Assembly (NCBI GenBank): GCA_965208325.1
Contig: OZ242326.1
Location: 672,001 to 736,000, forward strand
Origin: Candidatus Poribacteria bacterium
GTDB lineage: Bacteria > Poribacteria > WGA-4E > PCPOR2b
Direction: 5' to 3'
Length of the DNA: 64,000 nucleotides
The stretch's first letter is position 1; each line of letters starts with the position of its first letter. Made by a program: the position numbers and the translations under genes. Below the pieces are notes generated by a model. It saw only the letters and a program-made list of their open reading frames with translations. It did no database searches and was not told the origin of the DNA. Shown one piece after another: positions 35,931 to 47,658 of the stretch.

Positions 35931-36674
35931 ATGACACCTACACCTGTCCTAGTGTCTTGGTCATCAGGTAAAGACTCCGCATGGGCGCTCTACACGCTGC
36001 GCAATCAGCCAGAACGTTATGACGTCCGCGGAATATTTACTACGATAACTAGAACATTTGATAGGGTTTCAATTCATTCTACACCATCGTGGATTTTAGA
36101 GCAGCAAGCCCAGAGATTGGACCTACCGCTGTACGAGATTCCTATCCCGTATCCCTGCTCTAACTCACAGTATGAGTCCGCAATGAGAGCGTTCCTTAAT
36201 CAAATTCAGGAACTGCCCGCGGATATCGCCGCGTCACATCTTGCATTTGGAGACCTCTTCCTAGAGGACATTCGGAAGTATCGCGAGGATAAACTGCGCG
36301 GGACGGGCTTCACACCGATTTTCCCTGTATGGGGGCAAGACACCACGCTACTTGCTCGAAGGATGATTGAGTCGAGAATGCGGGCGATTGTTACTGCGCT
36401 TAATCCAACCATGATACCAGCAGAGTTCGCCGGCAGATGGTTCGATTCCAACTTTCTAGCGGACTTACCGGAGGAAGTAGACCCGCTTGGCGAGAACGGA
36501 GAGTTTCATACGTGTGTCGTTGATGGTCCGATGTTCAGCAGCGCTATTCCAGCCAAACCCGGAAGAATTGTAGAGCGAAAAATTGCCGCCGCGTCAAATG
36601 AAGGTGATGACCTTGACAACGCCGGCAATGACTCTCCGGCGTACGTCTACGCTGACGTAATTCCATTGACCTAA
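35931..36674 (+). CDS. PP-loop ATPase, MJ0570/Dph6 (DUF71)-like
   Basis: VSWSSGKDS, AFGDLFLEDIRKYRE, VDPLGENGEFHT. Confidence 0.88.
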   Translation: MTPTPVLVSWSSGKDSAWALYTLRNQPERYDVRGIFTTITRTFDRVSIHSTPSWILEQQAQRLDLPLYEIPIPYPCSNSQYESAMRAFLNQIQELPADIAASHLAFGDLFLEDIRKYREDKLRGTGFTPIFPVWGQDTTLLARRMIESRMRAIVTALNPTMIPAEFAGRWFDSNFLADLPEEVDPLGENGEFHTCVVDGPMFSSAIPAKPGRIVERKIAAASNEGDDLDNAGNDSPAYVYADVIPLT

Positions 36675-36825: not shown

Positions 36826-38706
36826 TTAGTTTTGTGGGGGGATTACGGTCGACAATGTCTCGATGAGTTCGTCTAGGTACACGTGCCGAAAGAACTCTGA
36901 AAGCCGCTTCTGTCTCGGTTTCATCGGGAGCAATAAAAAATCGGAACGGCTAACTTGGATGGTTTCAAATACCATGCGGTAGGCGTGACTTGTGGCGTAG
37001 CCAACAACCAGCGCATAATAGTCGGCATATTTATCGAGATAGGCGTTGAACCTATCGGCGCCCAACTGGATTTGCGCGATGTTTCTGGGAGACAACTGGA
37101 AATCGTAGCGCACGACGGGTTCTTCAGTTTCAAATTCTTCAGGTACTGGCCCGTAAAGCCCCGAAAGCGTAACCTTGTGAATCTCCTGTTGATTCTCTCC
37201 AAAAGCCGCTTGAAGCCTAGTGTTGATGATAGCGTGTGTACGAGACAGCGAATACGGCTTTTTCCCCGCACAGGGTATTGACAAAAGAACCTTCGTGTCC
37301 CTAGGGGGTACATAACTATCTGGAATGACAAAGGAATCTGGTGTGTAATTCAGCGAGAGGCTCCTCGCTTCTTGGCTCGTAGTCTGGAAGAGTTCCAGTT
37401 GATTGGGGTTCCTCTTACCGGCGCGCCGGTTTTCTGAGGTAGGGGCTGCCGCAATCGTTCTCGCCATTCGGCTGGCAAAAGATTCATCGTTCGCCATCAA
37501 CCAGTCGATAGCCGCACGTATGCCGCGGCCAGATGAGGCATGCCGGCATATTTCTTCCAGCGCATCATCGGCTTCAATCGCACGTTTCATGCGTGACAGC
37601 AACTCTGTTTCCAACTCGAGATTGTGCAAGGCGATCGCCGCATAATATTCGCTCTTATATTTTCCGGTCGAGGTCCGTTTATAGCTTGCCGCTTCCATTA
37701 AGGCGCCCTGCATCTCATCAAGCGAAACCTCGCTGCATATTCGGCACGTACAAGTTAGCTCATCCAACTCCATTAGTTTTCGCTTTGCTCGGGTCAATGG
37801 ATCCGCATAGTTGAGGCCGCGCGCCGACTGAATGTAGCTTGTGCTGTCAAAGCTATCAATTCCCATGTATGCCAGGATAGGCGCGAGTTCGCCTGAGACC
37901 CCGAATGCGTGGATGGGCGTATGCGGGCGTGCTGAATCCGGAATTGCCCTTTGAACCCCGCAGATTCGTTCGAGCACCTCCGAATCCTGCTTCCCGCGCA
38001 GCGGCACTAAGGAGCCGATCGCAAGCCCGAATGCGGGCAGCACGCCCGTAAGACGGTCAAAAACCCTTTTGACATAATCTTCAATATCCGACTGAGACTG
38101 CCCATGGCAGCATACGTATAAAAAGGGCGGTTGCGCTTTGGTTGAGAGCAAAGTTCCTACGCGGCAGGCGTTCTCCAAACTGAGGCTCATCCGTTTTTCG
38201 GCTTCCGAGCGTTCTAACCCCGGCGGTAACGGATAATCTAAGGAAGCGAAGATTTCTCCGCCAACGTCCTCTTGGAGCGCAAGAATATCATCGGCTTCGG
38301 TCTCTTTTTCAATACCAAATTCCGTCAGGTCCAACCCCGCGTTGTAAAGCAGCTTAAATCCGCCGGAGTCGAGAAACAGCGGGGCATTGTAGGCACCGTT
38401 TACCTCTTGGTACCATTCACGAATGGATTTATTTCGCCACTTCGCTAAGATTTTGCCATTGATGGGAAAGTCTAGAAAGTGGAGGACTTGTGATAACATC
38501 GGCGTGTCGCGCTTCATTAAATCACGGAGCAGATATTTCCATAGTCCGCCGCCGCGCGGAGTAGAGCCGGTCATAAATGAAACCACCGGATACAAAATCG
38601 GTGTTGACAGTGGTGATAAAACTTCGCCATTCCGTAGCAATTGAAGTTCGCCAATTCTGCCGTTTTTTCTTTGAACAATCGTATGGTAGGTTGGGGTTGC
38701 GGTCAT
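36826..38706 (-). CDS. tRNA/DNA-guanine transglycosylase (TGT/DpdA-like) fused to an ArcS-motif (DUF5591-like) domain
   Basis: FLDSGGF, LDYP, GLAIGSLVP, IHAFG, GIDSFDSTSY, CTCRIC...LHNL Zn site; C-terminal PCAGKKPYSLSRTH and LSGLYGPVP. Confidence 0.88.
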   Translation of the reverse strand: MTATPTYHTIVQRKNGRIGELQLLRNGEVLSPLSTPILYPVVSFMTGSTPRGGGLWKYLLRDLMKRDTPMLSQVLHFLDFPINGKILAKWRNKSIREWYQEVNGAYNAPLFLDSGGFKLLYNAGLDLTEFGIEKETEADDILALQEDVGGEIFASLDYPLPPGLERSEAEKRMSLSLENACRVGTLLSTKAQPPFLYVCCHGQSQSDIEDYVKRVFDRLTGVLPAFGLAIGSLVPLRGKQDSEVLERICGVQRAIPDSARPHTPIHAFGVSGELAPILAYMGIDSFDSTSYIQSARGLNYADPLTRAKRKLMELDELTCTCRICSEVSLDEMQGALMEAASYKRTSTGKYKSEYYAAIALHNLELETELLSRMKRAIEADDALEEICRHASSGRGIRAAIDWLMANDESFASRMARTIAAAPTSENRRAGKRNPNQLELFQTTSQEARSLSLNYTPDSFVIPDSYVPPRDTKVLLSIPCAGKKPYSLSRTHAIINTRLQAAFGENQQEIHKVTLSGLYGPVPEEFETEEPVVRYDFQLSPRNIAQIQLGADRFNAYLDKYADYYALVVGYATSHAYRMVFETIQVSRSDFLLLPMKPRQKRLSEFFRHVYLDELIETLSTVIPPQN

Positions 38707-38938
38707 AGTAGGACGTTTTTATAACAGTGCATTAAAGGGTAAGGACGCAACGGAATTGGACGGTAATTTTTTACACTGGCGAATCACAAGGTAAACACGC
38801 GGTTAGGTGCGTTTTTCATATGGAGAATTTAAAATCACTTGCGCAATTTAGCGTCGGCGAACTTGCGGGATGCGCACAAGTAAAGACAACGGTCATGTTG
38901 CGGGGCGATGGGCGTCGTTAAGATGGCACGCTCGCCCT

Positions 38939-39859: not shown

Positions 39860-41086
39860 TCACTCTCCAATCACAACGCCGTATTGGGCGACAACTGCGC
39901 CTCTGTGAATGCCTTGATAATGCAAGTGCCGCTCACCAACGATTGACTGCGTGCTCTGGACTTCGACGGTACCGATCACATCTCCCATGGCGTTTTCGTC
40001 AACATCCCAGCAGCAGAAGGGTTTAATGGTGTTGTGTAGTTGCCTGAGTATATTTGCATGCCTGTCACGAATCACGATGTTTACCATTGCATCTGCCTCA
40101 TCAACGTTCAAGAACCGAAACCAGTCGTGCGACCCGGTGTGGATTTCGGGGAAAAAGAGGTGCCGCCCAACATGGCCTCCCTCCGCAGATGCACCCGGGA
40201 GATCGACTATACTTGTCCCGCTGTGCATATGGCGTTCCGCTGCAATGGACTCGTCGCTCCGAGCTTCAAGGGAAGATTTTATTTTGATTGCATCCATATC
40301 AGGCGTCCAGCATTCAAATGAGCCAAGAGTCTGTTCGTCCGACCATACAGGGTTACCCGTGCCATCCTCTCTTGCTATGAGCGTAACTTTTGCTTCTTCC
40401 TGCCCAACATTCACAACAATTGCCCAATCGTTCCATGCGGGCCCAACTTCAGGGAAGTAAAGTGTGGTTGGACCGTCTGAAATAACCTGCCCGAATTGCC
40501 CCACGGACGTCTGTCCACCCTGATAGTGCAGATGCCGTTCGCCAACAATGAGTTGCGTACTCTGCACTTCGACAGTTCCAACCACATTTCCCATGGCCTC
40601 CTCCGCGAGATCCCAAGTACAAAGCGGTGGTATCTGCCGATGGTGCTGTCTAATAACGTCCCCATTTCTGTTCCGAATTACCATGTTCACCAACGCTTCT
40701 GCTTCCCCAACATTCAAAAATCGGAACCAGTCCCGTGCGCCGGACACCAGTTCTGGGAAAAAAAGACGTAAACCGACAGTTTCATATTCGACCGCTGCAC
40801 CCACAAAATCCATAACATTGGAGCCGCCGTGCATATGCCGCTCTGCAACAATCGGCTGGTCAGCCGTGAGTTGCATGGAGGAATTCTCTCCAATTGCTTC
40901 AACGTTCGGTGTCCAGCATTCAAATGCATCAACCTCCTTCTCCTCGGACCAGGTAGGCTGACCGTTTGCCGGATTCCTCGCGATCGCCAATACTTTAGTG
41001 GGTTCAGTTCCGACATTGACGACCTGTACCCAATCCACCCATGCGGGCCCGAGTTCAGGAAAATAGAGTGTTGTTGCTCCTGGCAT
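39860..41086 (-). CDS. Hypothetical protein of four ~100-aa repeats (A-B-A-B)
   Basis: Each unit has L[YF]FPE...DW...NV...ERH[ML]H; AGGAG RBS; no signal peptide. Confidence 0.85.
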   Translation of the reverse strand: MPGATTLYFPELGPAWVDWVQVVNVGTEPTKVLAIARNPANGQPTWSEEKEVDAFECWTPNVEAIGENSSMQLTADQPIVAERHMHGGSNVMDFVGAAVEYETVGLRLFFPELVSGARDWFRFLNVGEAEALVNMVIRNRNGDVIRQHHRQIPPLCTWDLAEEAMGNVVGTVEVQSTQLIVGERHLHYQGGQTSVGQFGQVISDGPTTLYFPEVGPAWNDWAIVVNVGQEEAKVTLIAREDGTGNPVWSDEQTLGSFECWTPDMDAIKIKSSLEARSDESIAAERHMHSGTSIVDLPGASAEGGHVGRHLFFPEIHTGSHDWFRFLNVDEADAMVNIVIRDRHANILRQLHNTIKPFCCWDVDENAMGDVIGTVEVQSTQSIVGERHLHYQGIHRGAVVAQYGVVIGE

Positions 41087-44802: not shown

Positions 44803-47658
44803 TTATCGCCGTTTCCAAATCTCCACATTTCCAAGCTGAATATCTTTGATATAATGTATTTGAAGATAAGCAGCGACTAATGGAAGCACGGCGGAAATCC
44901 GCTCTCTGTATATCACTATTTTTGGCTTCGACGCCTCCAAGTCCGCAATCACCTCTTTCTGCAGCGGCTCCGGTTTAGCATAGGCGATTTGAGGGAACCT
45001 TGTTGGATTAGGTCTGTTCGCAAGGAAATAATTCATGCCTTGGTTAGCAAAATCGAAGATTGGGTCAGAAGACTCGGTGTTTTCTTGGATATAATTGACC
45101 ACCTGTTCAATCTGCGCCGCCTCGTTCACTGGTGTCAAAACCCGCCCTGCCCGCTTTAAGCGTACCTCGGCATATCCCCCTGGGATTCTTCCGTAATTCG
45201 TAAAATTAACTAGCATCGTTTCAGCCTGCTTCAACGGTTTGGCTGCGAATACCCCGTACAGATCTGTCCTGATATACCAAAGCAAGCCCACCACAAACAT
45301 CATAGAACAAATTAACAGCGGTAGATTAATTCGGGACATTTGCACGCTGCGGACCGTAGGCGGCGACGCATCACGACATTCACCATGCTCTACCGTCATT
45401 TTAGCATCGTTGGTTGTATCGGCTCTTGTCAGTTCTTCACTCGTTTTTACCTGGTGTGTATTCTCCGAAGATCCACGCAACCTAAACGCCAGCCACATTC
45501 CTTCAAAGAAAAAGAAGCAGATTAACCAGATAAAAGAAGAGCTAAATAATACATGGTGCCAGTCTGAACGACCTAAAGCTGTTCTGAAATAAATGATACC
45601 CGCCAACAGAATTATAAGCAACTTCCAATCCTCCACTTTCCATTGATTTGCAACTGCGCGAAACATCAGAAAGGTTAAAGTCATCAAGTAAACGAGGATG
45701 GGGAAATACCACATAAATGTCTTGCTTAAAATAAAGTCCGATAATGTGACGAGAGAGGTAATCTTTGATAGTTCTGCCAACAGCGGGATAAAGGGCGTTC
45801 CCCAAATTTCCGTGTGATACGTGAATTGAATCCATGAGCTTTTAACCGCATCATCTATCGCACCGTGGACGCCAAAAAAGATAATGAACGGGGCAAATCC
45901 TATTATGACCCCTAACTTATACGTTAGAAGCGGCGACAAACACTTGCCCAATGCACCATCCCTCACCTGCTGTACTTTGTCTTTTGAAGAACTAGGATTC
46001 GCCGCGGCTCCACCATTATTGACCGATCTGCAGAAAATGGAGGCGAAACCGAATACAAATAGGAACACGCTAGAGGCTGCCCAAGTATACAAACCGGTGT
46101 CAAGACTATAGAACACTGCCAATGTTGTACAAACTCCTGCCGCTGCGAGAATCGATTTTCCATGTCCGGGACTTCTTTGAGTCCATTTGCATAGCAGCAT
46201 CAGAGTGAGAAACCCCAGAATATGCCGATCTGTCACCGGAAGGTACGCTCGCGGTGCTGCCAATCCAAACGTCAGCAAAATTAAAGCCAAAGAAACAAAG
46301 AGAGCCGTAGCTCTTCTTCGAAAACACTGCAACGCGAGAAGATAAAAACAGACATATCCCAGTGGATACACAATATGGTGCAGTTTTCTATCCGCCTCTA
46401 GCGTTTCTCCAAAGAGTTTCATGGCGAGCCAGGGTTTGTATGCGTTTTGAACAAGCCCGTGCTGTAGGTAGACATCTCGATAAGGAATGCCCCCTCGCAG
46501 CAGTTCGTTTACTACTGCCGCACGTTCGCCTTCGTGATAAAGGTCAATACCGCCCATGGCGTTCGCACCGGTATAAGCATGGCTCAGACTGGCATTGCTA
46601 TTATACATAAAGGCGTAAATGAGAGCGGACATCATGATAATGTTCAGAATAGACACTCTCCGTTGCAAAGCCATGTGGTAAGGCCGGCTGGCGGGGATTT
46701 GCTGCTTAACAATTCTTCGGGATGAACGGAGGTTTAGCAGGGTAGAAATTTTCAAAGCGGCAATTGCTATGACAGTGACAATTGCCAAGATTGCCGCTGC
46801 ATGCTTCACCCTGAAAAACACCGTGAGAAACAACAGCAGGATGGACGGAAAATAAGTGACAGAATCATTTCGGAGTATATCAGCGAAACTATAAGGTGTT
46901 AATGTTCTCAGCAGTATCGAATATCCAACCCAGAATCCCCAGGTTCCCAGCACAATAACAAAGAGCATTTGCCAACACGCTATTGCTGCGACCTCTTTCG
47001 GACTTCCAATAATCAGAAGAAAAACGGTCAGGCAAACCCCGCAGGCAATCGGTATTCCATGGAATGGCATTGTCTCCCTAGCCCAAAGAATTTCTCCAAT
47101 TTTTGGCTCTCCTTCCAAACGCGTCTCGCCCTCGCGCGTTTCCAGTTTTTCACGCCGACGCCTTTTCGAGACCATCAGGTGGAATGAAAAAAACAACACT
47201 TGGGCAATTATGAACAGGCTCGCCGGCGTCCCGAATTCTCCAGCAAATTTGCCAGGAAGGTGTACTCGCTCCAACACTAACAAGAAAAGTAGATACGTGA
47301 GCGCATTTTCCCGCAAGATGCGCTCATTGGCGTTGTTAGTCAATTTAGCGCAAACCGCCGAGAACGTCACCCATAATCCGCAACTCATCAGGACATAAAC
47401 CGGCACGAACGCGAGTGCGGCTAAATAATTTACAATCTCCTGACGCTCGGCTACAGTACGTTTGGCAAGTTGATCTGACCCAAATTCAGTAAAAAAATGG
47501 AGGTGTTCCTTGACATTAAAACCCAATGCCAAAGCGAAAATAAAGCTGCTTCCGGAAACTATCACCGCAAAGGCTTGGTTTCTATGTTGCCGCGCGAGGT
47601 TGAAGGTGTCGCGAATAGCGTTACGCATAGCAAGATGCTCCAATCGAAGAAAGTCCAA
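44803..47658 (-). CDS. Large polytopic membrane protein, possibly a GT-C fold glycosyltransferase
   Basis: Many TM helices; DLYHEGE...GGIPYRDVYLQHG, ALGRSDWHH, C-terminal YIQENT...IFDF...YFLANRPNPTRF domain. Confidence 0.7.
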   Translation of the reverse strand: MDFLRLEHLAMRNAIRDTFNLARQHRNQAFAVIVSGSSFIFALALGFNVKEHLHFFTEFGSDQLAKRTVAERQEIVNYLAALAFVPVYVLMSCGLWVTFSAVCAKLTNNANERILRENALTYLLFLLVLERVHLPGKFAGEFGTPASLFIIAQVLFFSFHLMVSKRRRREKLETREGETRLEGEPKIGEILWARETMPFHGIPIACGVCLTVFLLIIGSPKEVAAIACWQMLFVIVLGTWGFWVGYSILLRTLTPYSFADILRNDSVTYFPSILLLFLTVFFRVKHAAAILAIVTVIAIAALKISTLLNLRSSRRIVKQQIPASRPYHMALQRRVSILNIIMMSALIYAFMYNSNASLSHAYTGANAMGGIDLYHEGERAAVVNELLRGGIPYRDVYLQHGLVQNAYKPWLAMKLFGETLEADRKLHHIVYPLGYVCFYLLALQCFRRRATALFVSLALILLTFGLAAPRAYLPVTDRHILGFLTLMLLCKWTQRSPGHGKSILAAAGVCTTLAVFYSLDTGLYTWAASSVFLFVFGFASIFCRSVNNGGAAANPSSSKDKVQQVRDGALGKCLSPLLTYKLGVIIGFAPFIIFFGVHGAIDDAVKSSWIQFTYHTEIWGTPFIPLLAELSKITSLVTLSDFILSKTFMWYFPILVYLMTLTFLMFRAVANQWKVEDWKLLIILLAGIIYFRTALGRSDWHHVLFSSSFIWLICFFFFEGMWLAFRLRGSSENTHQVKTSEELTRADTTNDAKMTVEHGECRDASPPTVRSVQMSRINLPLLICSMMFVVGLLWYIRTDLYGVFAAKPLKQAETMLVNFTNYGRIPGGYAEVRLKRAGRVLTPVNEAAQIEQVVNYIQENTESSDPIFDFANQGMNYFLANRPNPTRFPQIAYAKPEPLQKEVIADLEASKPKIVIYRERISAVLPLVAAYLQIHYIKDIQLGNVEIWKRR

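Follow-up and report, generated by a model that had tools for sequence, protein, structure and literature searches.

Which polynucleotide is modified by a bacterial protein that unites a complete transglycosylase (TGT) domain and the core of the archaeosine synthase ArcS in a single chain? The question is raised by a gene of a sponge-associated Candidatus Poribacteria bacterium, whose single-contig genome of 4.7 Mb is 95.6% complete; the gene lies in the window, by which we mean the whole 64,000-nucleotide stretch analysed here (contig OZ242326.1, positions 672,001 to 736,000 of the forward strand). 7-Deazaguanines occur in the DNA of phages, as 2'-deoxy-7-cyano-7-deazaguanosine (dPreQ0), 2'-deoxyarchaeosine (dG+), dADG (2'-deoxy-7-amido-7-deazaguanosine) and others, and in that of bacterial Dpd islands, as dPreQ0 and dADG; dG+ outside phage DNA is not reported in the literature searched. 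Nucleic acid modification by 7-deazaguanines is itself known; the new feature here is that the ArcS C1 domain follows a TGT domain with its full catalytic equipment, without C2 and PUA domains and without RaSEA. We regard it as evenly balanced whether the fusion is an orphan DNA enzyme, which exchanges guanine for 7-cyano-7-deazaguanine (preQ0) and converts the nitrile into an amidine (dG+-type), with no cognate restriction module here.

The protein is encoded on the minus strand by an open reading frame (ORF) with an ATG start and a stop-free translation, and is organised as follows:

36826..38706, minus strand: whole gene, TGT-DUF5591 (ArcS C1) fusion of 626 amino acids, stop codon at 36826-36828 (ORF list, translation and Pfam)
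37450..38706, minus strand: TGT base-exchange domain, residues 1-419, a TIM barrel with a zinc subdomain and a helical extension (Pfam, TgtA profile and 1iq8 structure)
37339..37449, minus strand: linker, residues 420-456, disordered and little conserved (model confidence and substitution rates)
36829..37338, minus strand: ArcS C1/DUF5591 domain, residues 457-626 (Pfam, ArcS profile and 2q07 structure)

Both domains were detected by Pfam above the respective cut-offs (TGT, PF01702: residues 106-384, E 7.4e-14, 52 bits, cut-off 26.3; DUF5591: residues 463-583, E 2.8e-13, 50.4 bits, cut-off 26), while neither PUA nor any further Pfam family was found in the protein at E <= 1. An earlier reading of the locus, made from the sequence only, had described two catalytic-looking domains in one polypeptide, a polar linker between them and a missing PUA domain, all of which are borne out. 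The AlphaFold2 model, calculated with 42 family members as input, has a mean predicted local distance difference test score (pLDDT) of 91.4 and a predicted template modelling score of 0.90, and the pLDDT falls below 50 only at residues 420-444 between the two domains. Orthologues are alignable from residue 1 to 626. The ratio of non-synonymous to synonymous substitution rates (dN/dS), determined with five orthologues, is 0.13-0.36 in the linker versus 0.06-0.19 in either domain (TGT 0.07-0.09, C1 0.06-0.19), and amounts to 0.13 overall (TGT 0.09, C1 0.19) against the closest relative. The gene in the window is intact, and both domains are under purifying selection.

The residues expected for catalysis are kept in both domains:

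38368..38370, minus strand: D113 of LDSGGF (with S114 and F117), aligned with arcTGT D95, the general acid/base of TGT enzymes (1iq8 alignment; invariant in 42/42 members)
38236..38238, minus strand: D157 of LDYP, aligned with arcTGT D130, base recognition (1iq8 alignment; invariant in the family)
38104..38106, minus strand: H201, at the position of arcTGT Gln169 and of a Gln in the host genome's own Tgt (alignment; nearly invariant in the family)
38005..38016, minus strand: pocket segment G231-S232-L233-V234 of the arcTGT type (arcTGT GGVV; preQ0-accepting; 1iq8 alignment)
37846..37848, minus strand: D287 of DSFDS, aligned with arcTGT D249, the nucleophile (1iq8 alignment; invariant in the family)
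37624..37752, minus strand: zinc site C319, C321, C324 and H361 (CTCRIC...H), aligned with CSCPVC...H of arcTGT
37234..37275, minus strand: PCAGKKPYSLSRTH, the ArcS signature PCx3KPYx2Sx2H (C479, K483, P484, Y485, S488, H491), residues 478-491 (translation, script check)

The motifs named in the sequence-only reading, LDSGGF, LDYP, HAFG (H266, G269), DSFDS (D284, D287), CxCxxC...H and GSLVP (G231-P235), are all present at script-checked positions, and its coordinates for the ArcS motif are exact. Among 42 members with 29-61% identity to the query, D113, S114, G116, D157, H266, G269, D287, C321, C324, H361, P484 and Y485 are invariant, and C319, C479, K483 and S488 are conserved in at least 90%. 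This motif set is far beyond chance expectation, and both domains look active. The alignment with arcTGT 1iq8 pairs GSLVPL of the fusion with GGVVPL, in which the V197/V198 pair makes the enzyme specific for preQ0 rather than preQ1 (PMC5699537); the earlier suggestion of a pocket like that of preQ0-using enzymes thus stands, the type being that of arcTGT.

Profile searches assigned the whole protein to the TGT superfamily (tgt_general, TIGR00449: 56.6 bits, cut-off 47.6) and placed it below the cut-offs of TgtA (TIGR00432: 86.6 bits, cut-off 350), ArcS (NF040592: 84.6 bits, cut-off 440), a second ArcS model (NF053620: 39.3 bits, cut-off 600), DpdA (NF041059: 21.3 bits, cut-off 200; PADLOC DpdA 20.8 bits) and bacterial queuine Tgt (TIGR00430: 19.1 bits, cut-off 306.75). 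The N domain alone (residues 1-440) scored 86 bits with TgtA, 58.3 with tgt_general, 32.9 with ArcS, 22.6 with DpdA and 20.7 with bacterial Tgt among the NCBIfam models, by far below every equivalog cut-off; such a cut-off was likewise reached by none of 33 library proteins picked from the weaker matches of the top-150 list (P0192-P0269). The best structural match to the model is arcTGT 1iq8 (Z 38.3, 345 residues, root-mean-square deviation 2.4 Å, 24% identity, model range 3-412), followed by bacterial TGT 3unt (Z 31.1), QTRT2 (27.8), DpdA 7ui4 (22.1, 296 residues) and Cap10 (19.6). The DpdA match does not settle which substrate is used. Foldseek also ranked 1iq8 first; its PDB listing was swamped by Z. 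mobilis TGT entries, so that the wide VIA structure search was the more informative one. The earlier label "TGT/DpdA" is too loose (DpdA 21-23 bits; Z 22.1 against 38.3 for arcTGT), whereas the statement that the protein is not a canonical queuine Tgt agrees with scores of 19-21 bits and with a separate canonical tgt in the genome (G000:C1:2344657-2345709, 537 bits to PF01702).

The assignment of the C-terminal domain to ArcS/DUF5591 is upheld by Pfam, by the ArcS profile and by structure. Alone, the domain reaches 55.6 bits with NCBIfam ArcS (model positions 287-404), and residues 457-625 of the model superimpose on AF0587 (2q07) with Z 16.3 over 137 residues (root-mean-square deviation 2.3 Å); the alignment extends to residue 625 of 626, the chain thus terminating inside the C1 fold. 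Its signature is the ArcS motif (PMC5699537; PMC10516641). Within the TGT domain, the ArcS profile covers only residues 242-413 (model positions 112-259), and the first barrel half with D113 and D157 is matched by the arcTGT profile alone; from this coverage canonical ArcS appears to have a reduced N domain. A word search with the C domain only returned members of the fusion family alone, and the host genome contains a single DUF5591 gene. As side observations, a library protein of 418 amino acids (P0257) resembles TnpB in its N-terminal segment (NF040570, 51 bits) and ArcS C1 in another (55.8 bits), which points to an unusual fusion or else to a gene call joined in error, and weak matches to the C domain only occur in ORFs of 297-347 amino acids from distant Poribacteria (G007:C76:9080-9520; G011:C114:195635-196120; G003:C272:6294-6527), which may be standalone, ArcS2-like DUF5591 proteins of bacteria.

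The substrate to be expected from the pocket should be available in the host because QueC (258 bits), QueF (111), QueA (450) and PTPS/QueD-type (109) genes are present elsewhere in its genome. The sequence-only reading had suggested looking for preQ0 genes and a separate tgt, and both have been found. The only QueF match (G000:C1:4168393-4168626) contains one TAA inside the matched stretch, perhaps just the gene end.

On this basis a two-step reaction can be envisaged. Judging from the conserved residues and the fold, the arcTGT-like domain would remove guanine from a polynucleotide, with D287 acting as nucleophile and D113 as acid/base, and preQ0, made by the cell for queuosine, would be inserted in its place. 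As the ArcS motif suggests, the tethered C1 domain would then attack the preQ0 nitrile via C479 to form a thioimide and add an amine to yield an amidine. With ammonia or glutamine as the donor the product would be dG+, and otherwise a lysine-type adduct, in either case without RaSEA. Since phage ArcS2 works without RaSEA and the ArcS of T. kodakarensis needs it, the product may be dG+, a lysine-type adduct or another compound. DNA as the target would be indicated by the genomic context of the relatives. Whether DNA or tRNA is modified had been left undecided by the sequence-only reading; the window indeed offers no clue, and the case for DNA comes from relatives only and is an inference.

The family is widely spread beyond the phylum. 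A word-based search gave 427 matches at E <= 0.001, the best 120 of which all carry both Pfam domains, and in an exhaustive search the number of representatives was 649 at E <= 0.001 and 102 at E <= 1e-30, full-length matches reaching as low as ca. 30% identity. Protein atlas clusters having both domains are partly bacterial and partly archaeal. In the NCBI and JGI databases the family is named "DUF5591 domain-containing protein" or "7-cyano-7-deazaguanine tRNA-ribosyltransferase", and no description of a cellular TGT-DUF5591 fusion was found in the literature searched. The fusion seems to be missing from viruses: a scan of viral contigs gave three weak TGT-only matches, and tblastn of the C domain against phage records none at E <= 1e-3, which at such divergence is a weak test.

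Genomic contexts were compiled for 101 loci (80 from metagenomes and 21 from genomes). Clustering at 75% identity sorts these loci into 48 groups, among them 46 metagenome-only lineages, in 41 of which at least two neighbour ORFs were available within the four ORFs considered on each side. The following counts are approximate, because an own greedy ORF caller was used and labels were passed by BLAST cluster membership from representatives named by Pfam or PADLOC. A deazaguanine gene, i.e. a second TGT, YhhQ/Vut_1, a DUF6884/DpdC domain, QueC or QueD, lies within four ORFs in 23 of the 46 lineages, DpdJ-, DpdK- or DpdH-like genes in 15, and one or the other in 29. When other defence-type genes (HATPase_c_3, HerA, NurA, DrmB, DruE-like helicase, UvrD, zeta toxin, integrase) are included, the number rises to 37, and nine lineages have none of them. 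Representative neighbours scored 222.9 bits (DpdJ), 42.7 (DpdK), 47.5 (DpdH), 170.8 (Vut_1/YhhQ) and 247.3 (QueC); DUF6884 is the DpdC domain (PMC11888242). Four layouts recur: fusion-DUF6884-TGT2-HATPase with or without QueC/QueD, whose parts are also found on a haloarchaeal megaplasmid; DpdJ-(unknown)-DpdK-fusion-YhhQ(-QueC); (QueC)-fusion-unknown-DpdH-long TGT; and UvrD-NurA-HerA-fusion-zeta. Two of the nine context-free lineages have other neighbours of interest, L047 adjoining GmrSD and HEPN genes and L100 an AIPR gene. In L047 (2708-4446) a homologue of 43% identity is followed by a GmrSD_N gene and then by a HEPN (MAE_28990-type) gene; GmrSD_N is a type IV restriction enzyme family cutting modified DNA.

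On haloarchaeal megaplasmids, full-length homologues have a DUF6884 gene and two further TGT genes as neighbours; plasmid homologues are present in the cultured haloarchaea Haladaptatus sp. YSMS36 and Natrinema sp. SYSU A 869. The Haladaptatus plasmid locus (L123; NZ_CP119784.1, 35180-61138) carries three TGT-family genes (673, 654 and 352 amino acids), together with genes for a DUF6884 protein, an ATP-binding protein of the HATPase type and an AAA protein of 1493 amino acids, and its 654-amino-acid product groups with the fusion family in the domain tree. Plasmids of Picosynechococcus (L124) and Nostoc (L125) carry long annotated dpdA genes (691-714 amino acids) with an N-terminal extension and a second small TGT gene (307-315 amino acids) wedged between two DEAD/DEAH helicase genes.

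Within the phylum, all 21 related species-genome loci belong to metagenome-assembled genomes (MAGs) of Candidatus Poribacteria, L019 and L021 representing opposite ends of a single gene within the same MAG. Of 176 phylum genomes including the host, 75 gave any match and 54 a strong full-length match (best E <= 1.8e-161). The strong matches are distributed unevenly over the families (f1 25/29, f2 9/11, f3 0/7, f4 19/112, f7 1/1) and, within f4, over the genera (g17 0/40, g18 12/65). Second copies exist in four genomes, intact in G054-G056 and broken in G031; broken or split copies of the fusion were found in G031, G070 and G151 and a short remnant in G043. This patchy occurrence with paralogues and pseudogenes fits an accessory gene.

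In 15 of the 21 loci a type II DNA methylase gene (N6_N4_Mtase; PADLOC MTase_II, 246 bits) lies upstream of the fusion on the same strand:

L006:6246-7887; also L004, L005, L007, L008, L010, L012-L015, L018-L020, L022 and L023: methylase-linked loci

An intact MutH/Sau3AI-like endonuclease gene lies between methylase and fusion in six loci, and endonuclease remnants of 24-29 residues persist in L009 and L013. The methylases share 72-88% identity among loci; because this is similar to the identities of the fusion, the methylase-endonuclease-fusion trio looks ancestral in this clade, with the endonuclease lost repeatedly. The arrangement looks like a restriction-modification pair that decays stepwise while methylase and fusion persist. 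At the host locus the region upstream of the fusion is as follows:

38707..38938, no strand: upstream intergenic region; in L004 ca. 1.4 kb with the type II DNA methylase gene stands here, missing from the window (pairwise alignment)

L004 is the closest relative, with 92% identity and the methylase retained, and the missing ca. 1.4 kb lies between a hydroxylase gene and the fusion gene. No orthologue of the L004 methylase was found anywhere in the host genome (best match 40.9 bits over 66 residues).

Several features favour DNA as target: the contexts seen across the family, the linkage to the methylase, the patchiness with pseudogenes and the missing PUA domain, PUA being the tRNA-binding module of arcTGT and ArcS. 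Given the location of its relatives in defence islands for DNA modification, the fusion probably introduces an archaeosine-like base into DNA. A small lead towards DpdA is provided by His201: histidine occupies this position in the family and in the second TGTs of the islands, glutamine in arcTGT and the host Tgt, and the residue may be the counterpart of DpdA His181, described as contacting the base (PMC10164549). When the PDB was searched by phmmer with residues 160-300, 7ui4 was not among the matches.

A considerable number of observations nevertheless weigh against DNA. With TIGR01210, which we take to be the RaSEA family, the best score in the host genome was 21.9 bits versus a cut-off of 212.15, a cut-off passed in 3 of 14 genomes in a control. 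Neither DUF6884 nor DpdJ (22 bits only) nor DpdK was found in the host genome, and with these genes missing no self/non-self use is evident. The window neighbours include neither dpdB nor dpdC, no genome-wide search for DpdB having been made; the sequence-only reading was correct in seeing no dpdB/C, que or radical-SAM gene adjacent to the fusion in the window. The methylase is deleted at the window locus, so that the fusion gene stands alone among housekeeping-type genes with no link to DNA. Salmonella DpdA requires the ATPase DpdB (PMC10164549), and the ArcS of T. kodakarensis, which transfers lysine, is inactive without RaSEA (PMC11298593). The Poribacteria are united in a single clade of the full-length tree (SH-aLRT 100) with L038/L039/L041 as sister, whose neighbours (MatE, ABC transporter, sigma-70, Lon) are again of the housekeeping type; YhhQ, DpdJ, DrmB and HerA/NurA contexts appear in the next clade out (SH-aLRT 95), and the nesting of the Poribacteria among lineages with such contexts (SH-aLRT 95-100) speaks for DNA. 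In the TGT-domain tree the host genome's Tgt sits apart from the fusion on a very long branch of its own, and the fusion does not group with cyanobacterial DpdA annotated by the Prokaryotic Genome Annotation Pipeline or with phage TGTs; because bona fide arcTGT, canonical ArcS and Salmonella DpdA sequences are missing from it, this tree shows only the separation from the host Tgt, the cyanobacterial DpdA and the phage TGTs. Both trees are "quick" trees with long branches and SH-aLRT (Shimodaira-Hasegawa-like approximate likelihood ratio test) support only. Judged by profiles and the modelled structure, the TGT domain is nearer to arcTGT than to DpdA. Finally, the identity of the fusion to its relatives falls with taxonomic distance: members of the genus share 84-92%, those of the family 63-82%, those of the order 56-72% and those of the class 52%. 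This gradient and the purifying selection look like old vertical inheritance, similar to that of a housekeeping RNA modification enzyme, and overall the gene seems to have descended vertically for a long time and to have been lost many times, with either a duplication or a transfer inside the phylum in addition.

These points lead to the alternative that survives best, an RNA enzyme. The fusion would then be a bacterial analogue that joins arcTGT and ArcS in one chain and places preQ0 and then an archaeosine-type base into tRNA or another structured RNA; its gene would have been recruited from a defence-island ancestor and retained by vertical inheritance in some of the Poribacteria. It is favoured by the arcTGT-like domain (arcTGT being the best match by profile, 86 bits, and by structure), by the vertical pattern, in which identity follows taxonomy at dN/dS values of 0.06-0.19, and by the housekeeping contexts of the window and of the sister clade around L041; the PUA domain of arcTGT, in addition, is reported to be dispensable for archaeosine formation. 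ArcS, moreover, acts on preQ0 in RNA and even on the nucleoside 5'-phosphate (PMC11298593). The protein, however, contains neither PUA nor C2 domain. Further arguments against RNA are the absence of the gene from 122 of the 176 phylum genomes and from whole genera (g17, 0/40), which together with the paralogues and pseudogenes is unusual for a tRNA modification enzyme, the same-strand linkage to the type II methylase and the deazaguanine or Dpd-like clusters in 29 of the 46 distant lineages. Archaeosine, in addition, is not known in bacterial tRNA (PMC5485725). We therefore consider RNA an unlikely target, give DNA an even chance and rate the readings apart from these two as improbable.

Among the latter, a target other than nucleic acid deserves mention: the deazaguanine might be transferred to a protein or small molecule, as by the TGT-like Cap10 of type IV cyclic-oligonucleotide-based antiphage signalling systems (CBASS), or the enzyme might salvage free bases or nucleotides, with C1 tailoring a free precursor. 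Cap10 as present in the complex with CdnD (9ntn_B, whose entry title names NDG modification) does match the model (Z 19.6, 293 residues), and the use of the preQ0 nucleoside and its 5'-phosphate by ArcS (PMC11298593) would suit such a role. Cap10 nevertheless ranks below arcTGT, bacterial TGT, QTRT2 and DpdA, the full Asp triad and zinc site of the polynucleotide TGTs are invariant, and the clusters of neighbouring genes showed neither a CD-NTase nor a CBASS gene, which makes this proposal quite improbable. That the gene is a decaying, non-functional remnant of a lost defence cassette in the host genome, as the missing methylase region without an orthologue elsewhere and the broken copies in G031, G070, G151 and G043 might suggest, is the least probable explanation of all in view of the intact 626-codon frame, the complete set of catalytic residues and a dN/dS of 0.13 (TGT 0.09, C1 0.19) to the closest relative.

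The other genes of the window add little to the assignment. Around the fusion lie genes for a fatty-acid hydroxylase, a 408-amino-acid protein of unknown family, a cyclase, TatD, GNAT, EamA, NadD-like, HD, RsfS and ArgRS proteins and a convergent Diphthami_syn_2 PP-loop protein. Synteny around the gene does not go beyond the three loci nearest to it, L004, L005 and L018. The Diphthami_syn_2 gene (35931-36674, plus strand; convergent, 151 nt from the fusion stop) was considered as a partner and rejected; it is probably unrelated because it is shared with L004 alone. The 951-amino-acid ORF at 44803-47658 (minus strand) and the 408-amino-acid ORF at 39860-41086 (minus strand) have no Pfam match at E <= 0.001, and the latter is kept in L004, L005 and L018 at 87-92% identity.

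Other transglycosylase arrangements were noticed in the phylum. DUF6884+TGT fusions of 589-641 amino acids occur in other Poribacteria (L126:1383-3308 in G170; L127:1594-3363, minus strand, in G138; L128:1219-3045 in G165), the gene in G170 adjoining a PD-(D/E)XK nuclease and a UvrD-like fragment. DUF6884 lies in ORFs of 574-642 amino acids in 13 genomes of the genera g17 and g18, none of which has the TGT-DUF5591 fusion; this does not amount to a significant exclusion between the two fusion types, as ca. 1.5 co-occurrences would be expected by chance in g17/g18. DUF6884 matches were found in 93 of the 176 phylum genomes, the host not being among them. In many Poribacteria a TGT-family ORF of ca. 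400 amino acids, weakly matching the query, stands 1-5 kb from a small DUF6884 ORF:

G033:C1:2919767-2924636; G021:C4:1305739-1310577; G070:C1:1786461-1791304: examples of TGT/DUF6884 pairs

These pairs suggest separate DpdA/DpdC-like modules, which are also present in fusion-carrying genomes.

If DNA is the target, base exchange and amidine formation would be combined in one cellular protein of bacteria and archaea that needs neither DpdB nor RaSEA. More specifically, we tentatively picture a domesticated, vertically inherited single-chain enzyme which writes dG+ or a preQ0-amine adduct into the host's own chromosome without matching restriction. Such an enzyme, if real, would provide the first cellular dG+, the first coupling of guanine-to-deazaguanine exchange with nitrile tailoring in one protein and an "orphan" 7-deazaguanine epigenetic mark, and would bear on whether deazaguanine marks persist in this form after the loss of the restriction partner. 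Should the product be made in RNA instead, bacteria would for the first time be seen to have an archaeosine-type RNA modification. The fusion would be a compact and easily expressed test case for the retargeting of TGT enzymes from tRNA to DNA and for an ArcS core acting alone, and the cultured haloarchaea with plasmid homologues make the prediction directly testable. Iyer et al. 2013 reportedly predicted TGT-type DNA modification systems, which may bear on priority.

Among the known systems, a close functional parallel is provided by Vibrio phage nt-1, whose DpdA2 and standalone, C1-only ArcS2 produce dG+ in E. coli plasmid DNA without RaSEA (PMC10516641 Table 3, Hutinet et al. 2023), so that the second step on DNA is within reach of a C1-only protein. 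Both comprise a preQ0-inserting transglycosylase and a C1-only DUF5591 unit that lack PUA and RaSEA; the fusion differs in being one polypeptide encoded on a cellular chromosome and in its TGT domain, which resembles arcTGT rather than phage DpdA. Phage and viral ArcS2 have the same C1 domain and motif, but the protein described here is fused and cellular.

Canonical ArcS is a TGT paralogue built of a TGT-like N-terminal domain, C1, C2 and PUA, and phage ArcS2 consists of C1 alone (PMC10516641). The outline "TGT-like plus C1" is not new because canonical ArcS is already built in this way; to this extent the sequence-only reading needs correction, and what sets the fusion apart are the complete catalytic TGT domain, the lack of C2 and PUA and a genome without RaSEA. 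ArcS with RaSEA, as found in Euryarchaeota, and the fusion share PCx3KPYx2Sx2H in C1 and the order of a TGT-like N-terminus followed by C1, and differ in exactly these features. With arcTGT (P. horikoshii 1IQ8) the fusion has in common both catalytic Asp residues, the Asp that recognises the substrate, the zinc site and a preQ0 pocket of the GxVVPL type, while it carries His201 for Gln169, lacks the tRNA-binding C2 and PUA domains and resides in a bacterium that already possesses a queuine Tgt.

The Dpd system of Salmonella Montevideo exchanges guanine for preQ0 in DNA and tailors the nitrile by DpdC to form dADG (PMC10164549). Relatives of the fusion adjoin DpdJ-, DpdK-, DpdH- and DpdC-like genes, YhhQ, QueC and QueD, in line with this system; in contrast to it, tailoring is predicted to be performed by the ArcS C1 domain and not by DUF6884, and no DpdB-like gene is adjacent. 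The DUF6884-TGT fusions of cyanobacterial plasmid dpdA genes and of other Poribacteria likewise unite a transglycosylase and a nitrile-tailoring domain in one chain of ca. 590-710 amino acids, but in the opposite domain order and with another tailoring domain.

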